The position numbers and the translations under genes were made by a program. This document shows, piece by piece, positions 2,032-2,088 of a DNA stretch of 14,683 bases. The notes under the pieces were generated by a model that saw only the letters and a program-made list of their open reading frames with translations, was not told the origin of the DNA and ran no database searches. Numbering within the stretch: the stretch's first letter is position 1; the number at the start of each line of letters is the position of its first letter. This DNA is from Chloroflexales bacterium. GTDB taxonomy: Bacteria > Chloroflexota > Chloroflexia > Chloroflexales > Chloroflexaceae. The DNA lies in assembly GCA_038247995.1 (NCBI GenBank), contig JBBRUG010000135.1, positions 1 through 14,683 of the forward strand, in the 5' to 3' direction.

Positions 2032-2059
2032 TTGCATTCCAGTAATATAGTGTTATAAT
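2032..2059 (+). promoter_or_regulatory. Sigma70-like promoter with a -35 TTGCAT box at 2032-2037, a 16-nt spacer and a consensus -10 TATAAT box at 2054-2059. It drives the MVP-like gene.
   Basis: Consensus -10, 5/6 -35, correct spacing. It lies ~45 nt upstream of the ATG at 2104, and the SD GAGGTG sits 6 nt before that ATG. Confidence 0.5.
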
Positions 2060-2088
2060 GACACTATATAAAGTGTCGCGGTAACACT
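2045..2088. promoter_or_regulatory. Two operator-like dyads. The first is ATATAGTGT-N7-ACACTATAT at 2045-2069, with the -10 TATAAT exactly in its centre. The second is AGTGT-N7-ACACT at 2072-2088.
   Basis: A perfect 9-bp inverted repeat is read directly. A second dyad with the identical AGTGT/ACACT half-site and the same 7-bp spacing lies immediately downstream. This is the classic geometry for a dimeric repressor occluding the -10 box and transcription start. Confidence 0.5.

Follow-up and report, generated by a model that had tools for sequence, protein, structure and literature searches.

A gene for a predicted homolog of major vault protein (MVP) lies on a 14,683-bp contig from a Chloroflexales bacterium (the window, by which we mean the whole of this stretch), and two neighboring palindromes of the form AGTGT-N7-ACACT lie over its promoter and early transcribed region. 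The original prediction took them for the sites of a dimeric repressor and named as that repressor the product of a divergently transcribed PadR-family gene close by. The repressor-operator reading is supported and appears correct in kind, but the choice of protein does not hold. Very probably, the palindromes are tandem operators for NrtR, the Nudix-related repressor of nicotinamide adenine dinucleotide (NAD) metabolism, with nrtR located elsewhere in the genome. The kind of regulator is already known; its target, the MVP-like gene, is new.

Two palindromes across the MVP-like promoter

Both dyads are exact, as had been claimed: the AGTGT-N7-ACACT core of dyad 1 lies at 2049-2065 and that of dyad 2 at 2072-2088, each with a spacer of 7 nt. 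The sequence runs from 2045 through ATATAGTGT, TATAATG and ACACTATAT to 2069, then AA, then AGTGT CGCGGTA ACACT from 2072 to 2088. Together with their flanking bases the cores make up two strandless 21-bp palindromes of NrtR type, operator 1 (ATAGTGT-TATAATG-ACACTAT, 2047-2067) and operator 2 (AAAGTGT-CGCGGTA-ACACTAT, 2070-2090). Dyad 1 has arms of 9 bp that pair at every position and reach 2045-2069. A gap of 6 bp separates the dyads, whose centers are 23 bp apart; in orthologs the distance between centers is 21-25 bp, so that the two sites are in phase, as was proposed, only approximately. With up to one mismatch allowed, AGTGTN7ACACT occurs at these two places only in the window, against 0.16 expected from shuffled sequences, and with up to two mismatches the window yields no further promoter-like site.

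How would a protein bound here act on the gene? The intergenic region (1750-2103) divides two divergent units, that of padR on the minus strand and that of the MVP-like gene (2104-3489, 461 amino acids) on the plus strand. On the plus strand a -35 hexamer, TTGCAT, can be read at 2032-2037, followed after a 16-bp spacer by TATAAT at 2054-2059; the TG just before it (2051-2052) makes an extended -10 element (TGTTATAAT, 2051-2059) embedded in the spacer of operator 1. Because TTGCAT agrees with TTGACA at three of six positions only, a consensus promoter scan did not list this promoter. Transcription is predicted to begin near 2066, and a putative ribosome-binding site, GAGG, stands at 2092-2095, 8 nt ahead of the ATG. 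The extended -10 element lies within operator 1, and operator 2 falls between the predicted start and the ribosome-binding site, a repressor geometry that is kept in the orthologs. Two details of the earlier description need adjustment. TATAAT does lie between perfect 9-bp arms, but it occupies the first six of the seven spacer bases and is half a base off-center; dyad 2 does cover the predicted 5' untranslated region (UTR), at about +5 to +22, but not the start itself. Two dimer sites over the -10 box and the early transcript would thus repress the gene by occluding RNA polymerase, as originally suggested, and a specific signal would induce it.

Conservation upstream of orthologous genes, which the original prediction had named as a test, extends over orthologs with 64-89% protein identity. 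These are L001 and L002 (89%), L003-L006 (75%), the metagenomic locus L134 (74%), L190-L192 (71%), L007 from Oscillochloris sp. ZM17-4 (69%), L187 from a Chloroflexaceae metagenome-assembled genome (MAG; 64%), and L188 and L189 (64%). All fetched close orthologs have an AGTGT-N7-ACACT dyad with a -10-like hexamer in its spacer; the forms seen in dyad 1 (TACAAT, TATATA, TATACT, TATAGT, TATTAT and TATAAT) resemble TAnAnT. TTGC or TTGACA stands 16-17 bp upstream of the hexamer in eight of eight aligned promoters. The second dyad is kept in all of the fetched orthologs except L188 and L189 (seven of the eight aligned promoters; it is degenerate in L188). Across the eight-promoter alignment TAGTG and CACTA of dyad 1 are invariant, while the spacers, the inter-dyad gap (4-8 bp) and the flanks diverge. 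To judge from the aligned sequences, this pattern is the phylogenetic footprint of a protein-binding site in which N7 is the fixed dimension. In Oscillochloris the two sites together form one inverted repeat with 22-nt arms.

Genes related to NAD and ADP-ribose also occur in the neighborhood of some of these orthologs. The Chloroflexaceae MAG (L187) has a SIR2-family gene (3923-4687) 1.3 kb upstream of the MVP-like ortholog, and L188 and L189 have a gene for a 155-amino acid NUDIX protein two genes downstream of it (11944-12411 in L188).

The match to NrtR operators

Which repressor recognizes such a pair? We scanned 185,579 genomes, one per species, for AGTGY-N7-ACACT-N3-10-AGTGT-N7-RCACT, clustered the first downstream open reading frames (ORFs) of the loci found and ran family searches on them. 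The scan returned at least 119 loci, and about 14 of the matches listed are tandem-repeat artifacts. At 33 loci or more the first downstream ORF, mostly of about 220-235 amino acids, clusters with a protein that carries NUDIX and NrtR_WHD domains (Pfam E = 1.4e-25); two members of this group, at L068 and L094, start with a NadM-type adenylyltransferase region. Elsewhere the downstream genes encode nicotinate phosphoribosyltransferase (pncB, at least seven), NadA (at least five) and NadB (at least five; TIGR00551, above cut-off), and the matches listed also include PncA-like proteins, a NadV-type phosphoribosyltransferase and a DraG-like ADP-ribosylhydrolase. In most non-artifact loci the first dyad directly adjoins a TTGACA, and a TATAAT-like hexamer stands in the interval between the two dyads.

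The same arrangement is found within the phylum Chloroflexota, where loci with nrtR or NAD genes include L032, L064, L079, L082, L086, L091, L111 and L117. At L032 the twin dyads stand in front of nadA, an nrtR gene lies at a distance of 1.6 kb, and the NrtR that it encodes matches the solved NrtR-family structures 5BS6 and 3GZ5. In a Herpetosiphonaceae MAG (L064) twin dyads are followed by pncB, in Ktedonobacteria and Chloroflexia MAGs by nadB.

From 108 sites that lie upstream of nrtR or of canonical NAD genes we derived a weight matrix, whose consensus is WWAGTGT-N7-ACACTWW. Against a training range of 20.8-38.3, operator 1 scores 33.8 and operator 2 scores 21.6; no other 25-mer in the window does better than -2.8. 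The flanks lay outside the search pattern, and yet A or T fills about 99% of the two positions that border the core on either side in the training sites. In the window, with DNA of about 58% GC, none of the eight flank positions is a G or C. A gap of 6 bp (23 bp center-to-center), as in the window, is also the commonest spacing in the training set.

Published work on NrtR agrees with this picture. Rodionov et al. (2008, PMC2330246) define the NrtR operator as a palindrome of 21 bp around a GT-N7-AC core, and both window sites, as WWAGTGT-N7-ACACTWW, fit that definition, including its GT-N7-AC / TG-N7-CA core. Mycobacterial NrtR, too, has an N7 palindrome. Tandem NrtR sites, both of them bound, precede prs-nadV in Shewanella oneidensis, and NrtR sites overlap the promoter or fall between promoter and start codon, implying repression (PMC2330246); in the window the tandem pair likewise overlaps the promoter and early transcript. 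ADP-ribose suppresses DNA binding by the NrtR proteins of Synechocystis and Shewanella (PMC2330246); apart from these two, the Mycobacterium protein is the only NrtR for which specific binding and release by ADP-ribose have been published. Known regulons include nadA, nadE and nadM-nadV in Synechocystis and, within the Chloroflexales, nrtR-pncA, pncB and nadCAB in Roseiflexus sp. RS-1 (PMC2330246).

On the assumption that the repressor is NrtR, the mechanism might run as follows. One NrtR dimer would bind each 21-bp palindrome (WWAGTGT-N7-ACACTWW) through its C-terminal winged-helix domains. Occupancy of operator 1 would mask the extended -10 box, and occupancy of operator 2 the first 20 or so nucleotides past the start site; binding of RNA polymerase or formation of the open complex would be blocked and the MVP-like gene kept off. 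Should ADP-ribose or a related product of NAD breakdown accumulate, it would bind the Nudix-like domain, NrtR would leave the DNA and transcription would follow. One dimer per palindrome, repression and release by ADP-ribose are taken here from the published NrtR work and not from the window.

What weighs against NrtR? No nrtR gene or NrtR-like ORF was found on the 14.7-kb contig or on any fetched Chloroflexales MVP locus, and because of its absence from the contig we infer, rather than observe, that an NrtR of this organism uses these sites; the same applies to the identity of the effector. NrtR motifs differ between lineages, and we know of no role for an MVP-like protein in NAD metabolism. 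We retrieved no nrtR or NAD gene bearing the motif from this organism's genome or from any genome confirmed as Chloroflexaceae, and support from within the order comes from the published Roseiflexus regulon. A search with the NrtR of L032 did not reach a Chloroflexales NrtR: the best 120 matches listed are all close relatives, labeled Dehalococcoidia. A literature search for NrtR with Chloroflexus or Roseiflexus gave nothing new. About 17 hits would be expected by chance in the genome scan, a figure calculated from uniform base composition and not from a control scan. Finally, among distant MVP-like genes (at most 60% identity) dyads occur in about 3 of 60 metagenome loci. As most distant homologs lack them, the link between dyads and MVP-like genes is limited to one clade plus L173; the gene seems to have been recruited into the regulon in a Chloroflexales clade and, independently, in L173.

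The window also departs from known NrtR systems in certain respects. Its target is an MVP-like gene of the SPFH superfamily, whereas known targets are genes of NAD or pentose metabolism or of ADP-ribosylation, and the regulator gene is unlinked to the target. In the window the -10 box lies inside operator 1, but most nrtR and NAD promoters of the scan have it between the operators, with TTGACA abutting operator 1. It could be argued from such differences that some other regulator of this Chloroflexales lineage has converged on AGTGT-N7-ACACT and that the likeness to NrtR is coincidental. In favor of this idea are the position of the -10 inside dyad 1 throughout the clade, a target without evident NAD function and the lack of nrtR on every MVP-like contig. 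Yet the convergence would have to embrace the core, the spacing, the A/T flanks, the tandem layout and the commonest inter-site distance, while in Chloroflexota this motif also stands in front of nadA, nadB and pncB. Moreover, SPFH-type genes are physically clustered with nrtR in at least 15 loci, and in Ardenticatenaceae (L118) an almost identical operator pair precedes a Band_7 gene. Nothing requires such a regulator, and we consider it unlikely.

The scan also turned up targets of other kinds. In archaeal MAGs (L011, L053, L060 and L122; Woesearchaeota and three unclassified) twin dyads lie upstream of genes of PncB type or nicotinamidase-like genes, with NrtR-like ORFs nearby in L053 and L060, which suggests NrtR-type regulation in archaea. 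At five loci (L013, L014, L061, L069 and L100), four of them in Chloroflexota, the twin operators are followed by a HemN-like radical SAM protein of about 490 amino acids, closest to the STM4012 family although below the family cut-off. In an Oscillochloris sp. MAG (L029, 1138-1176) twin operators with TATAAT inside dyad 1 precede a gene for a 562-amino acid DnaK/HscA-like protein, a further non-NAD target in the same genus as L007.

The divergent padR gene and lesser alternatives

The idea that the divergent PadR (1189-1749, minus strand; Pfam PadR and Vir_act_alpha_C) is the repressor of the MVP-like gene, acting through the twin dyads, rests on plausible grounds. Repressors of the PadR family are winged-helix dimers with palindromic binding sites, regulators are often encoded divergently from their targets, and padR is divergent from its supposed target here. 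The statement that PadR is the sole regulator in the window also proved right: no other DNA-binding regulator is encoded there. PadR operators, such as those of Bacillus subtilis PadR and LmrR, are of the type ATGT-N8-ACAT. The half-site had been described as related to this type, but neither AGTGT nor the N7 spacing fits it.

The dyads and padR do not travel together. MVP-like genes are accompanied by the dyads in 11 fetched orthologous loci (seven distinct sequences), and the upstream neighbor on record is a gene for an acetyl-CoA synthetase, a transglutaminase-domain protein, an MFS or EamA protein or a DNA methylase, never padR; no neighbor is on record for L001, L002, L006 and L189, whose contigs end 250-410 bp upstream, or for L134, which comes without a gene table. 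Conversely, each gene for an ortholog of the PadR protein (60-77% identity; L193, L194 and L195) overlaps an alpha/beta hydrolase gene that comes after it, and no AGTGT-N7-ACACT site, with up to one mismatch, is present in these three padR-hydrolase loci. L194 even keeps the synteny of the window, with a large secreted protein, aroQ, an ORF of 81 amino acids, padR and the hydrolase; the MVP-like gene is absent. The predicted padR promoter, from a consensus promoter scan (1802-1775, minus strand), is about 250 bp from the dyads, beyond two repeat arrays, and has a conserved element of its own, and the twin AGTGT-N7-ACACT motif stands in front of nrtR and NAD genes in many phyla. Taken together, these findings make binding by PadR very improbable, and PadR is apparently beside the MVP-like gene by chance. 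Any electrophoretic mobility shift work guided by adjacency would have been misdirected to the wrong protein.

The hydrolase gene (402-1286, minus strand) comes after padR on that strand and, because padR orthologs always precede an overlapping gene of this kind, is assigned to the padR operon. It had been described as co-operonic with the MVP-like gene, which it is not, and since it belongs to the padR operon the suggestion that the inducer is linked to the hydrolase substrate falls as well.

The padR promoters deserve a comment in their own right. Four of them (1750-1802, minus strand, in the window, and those of L193, L194 and L195) share TTGACA and TACTAT and have, just before the start codon, a conserved stretch TACTAT-N2-GATATATA-N-CTATT that is unlike the dyads. 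This stretch is a candidate for PadR's own operator.

Could the palindromes instead work by folding, as a hairpin in the 5' UTR of the RNA or a cruciform in the DNA, or have arisen by chance in an AT-rich promoter? Palindromes can fold, and the joint 22-nt-arm repeat in Oscillochloris is of this nature. The 5' UTR, however, folds no better than shuffled sequence (-4.9 against a shuffled mean of -7.3 kcal/mol; z = +0.97), on which ground we rejected an RNA hairpin, and dyad 1, being upstream of the predicted start site, would not be transcribed. Given the chance expectation stated above, and half-sites that are invariant and show no compensatory changes, this explanation is scarcely credible.

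The faintest candidate is NrdR, with the central ACACTATATAAAGTGT (2061-2076) as an NrdR box and the gene in the ribonucleotide-reductase regulon. The inter-dyad stretch, ACAC-N8-GTGT, does resemble a single box and has five of the six highly conserved positions (C4, A6, A8, T9 and G13). According to PMC13584703, an NrdR site is a pair of 16-bp boxes set 15-16 bp from each other, with C4, A6, A8, T9, T11 and G13 conserved; the window has A in place of T11 and no second box (2092-2107 is not one). Across orthologs the ACACT-to-AGTGT distance varies from 4 to 8 bp, while AGTGT-N7-ACACT is constant. With the second box missing and the inter-dyad spacing variable, we rejected this reading, whose chances are negligible.

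The remainder of the window holds several further features. The MVP-like and padR promoters are separated by a heptamer array (1845-1901) and an octamer array (1921-2027). Arrays of the octamer GGTTCCGT in the same orientation flank the MVP-like promoter and coding sequence on both sides (1921-2027 and 3683-3817), with heptamer arrays near them (GGTGTCC x8 and CAGGCGG x12; 1845-1901 and 3498-3582). Because the syntenic L194 has padR, the 81-amino acid ORF and aroQ without the MVP-like gene, these arrays may mark, or have mediated, insertion or deletion of an MVP-like cassette. Downstream of aroQ (4325-4765) the minus strand encodes two very large proteins of 1737 and 1292 amino acids (4817-10030 and 10329-14207) with right-handed beta-helix/NosD and multiple Ig-like domains (NPCBM_assoc, FixG_C and DUF7507). 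At the contig end (1-327) a 115-bp unit is repeated 2.7 times with 87% matches, and the short ORFs overlapping it are probably not genes.

SPFH-type genes under the same operators

What is the gene that these operators would control? The MVP-like protein itself matches Pfam MVP_shoulder at 25.8 bits (cut-off 25), and its homologs carry Vault_3, Vault_4, Band_7 and MVP_shoulder domains. A profile of the family matches eukaryotic MVP chains in the PDB with E = 1.5e-15, aligning with the MVP repeat region (residues 352-408) and with the shoulder and cap helix (residues 491-745). By homology, then, the regulated gene is placed as an MVP homolog with one or more vault repeats, an SPFH-like shoulder and a cap-helix coiled coil.

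It is not the only member of its superfamily so placed. Genes of the SPFH superfamily follow such operators in three architectures, at no fewer than 22 loci spread over many phyla. The most frequent setting is a trio, found in at least 15 loci, of an SPFH/Band_7 gene of about 320 amino acids, nrtR and a gene X for a 306-amino acid NAD-kinase-like protein, in the order SPFH-X-nrtR or nrtR-SPFH-X. The 306-amino acid protein gives weak but consistent NAD-kinase matches (E = 1.6e-7, below the family cut-off). Trio loci (L009, L022, L025, L026, L034, L036, L047, L065, L080, L085, L087, L090, L110, L119 and L120) come from Acidobacteriota, Planctomycetota, Nitrospirota, Nitrospinales, Proteobacteria, Longimicrobiales and Obscuribacterales. 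In a second architecture, a 282-amino acid transmembrane Band_7 protein directly follows the operators in at least six Chloroflexota loci (L042, L063, L066, L067, L071 and L118; the reading frames in L042, L066, L071 and L118 were set by inspection and tblastn). The operators of L118, AGTGTTATAATGACACT...AGTGTCGATAGAACACT, are nearly identical to those of the window. A direct comparison of the MVP-like and 320-amino acid families with hhalign gave a probability of 46% and E = 2e-4, indicating a distant relation only; we call them one superfamily on the Pfam Band_7 evidence and not as close relatives.

Rodionov et al. (2008) list unnamed NrtR targets, nrtX-nrtY, in Actinobacteria and Gammaproteobacteria (PMC2330246). 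These are, like the genes above, uncharacterized genes under NrtR sites, and the pair of 320-amino acid SPFH and 306-amino acid NAD-kinase-like genes may be nrtX-nrtY. The window differs from nrtX-nrtY in that its gene is of another SPFH architecture, with vault repeats, shoulder and coiled coil, and has no NAD-kinase-like partner. A literature search found the names nrtX and nrtY in the 2008 paper only, and no paper treating NrtR together with SPFH.

We know of no function or regulation for any bacterial MVP homolog; the literature that we found on them is a sequence survey (bioRxiv 10.1101/872010). Assignment of the operators to NrtR would supply a concrete inducing signal for the MVP-like gene, namely ADP-ribose or NAD turnover, and would extend the NrtR regulon past NAD and pentose enzymes to scaffold proteins of the SPFH type. 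Tentatively, and at rather less than even odds, we propose that the ADP-ribose-responsive NrtR regulon of many phyla has a further, recurring branch, not described so far, made up of SPFH scaffold proteins of three architectures: the 320-amino acid protein with nrtR and the NAD-kinase-like gene, the membrane-anchored Band_7 protein and the vault-protein homolog.

Eukaryotic vaults carry a poly(ADP-ribose) polymerase (PARP) that uses NAD+ (PMC12280208). The window protein resembles the eukaryotic vault (MVP with PARP4) in being an MVP sequence homolog that is apparently under an ADP-ribose sensor. This should be read as a resemblance and no more: neither a PARP gene nor a vault RNA is linked to the bacterial homolog, which is known from its sequence. 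If the proposal is true, bacterial MVP-like proteins would be induced during NAD+ breakdown, as by NADase toxins, anti-phage NAD-depleting systems or ADP-ribosylation, and the association of vaults with PARP could reflect an old functional tie between vault/SPFH assemblies and NAD/ADP-ribose metabolism.

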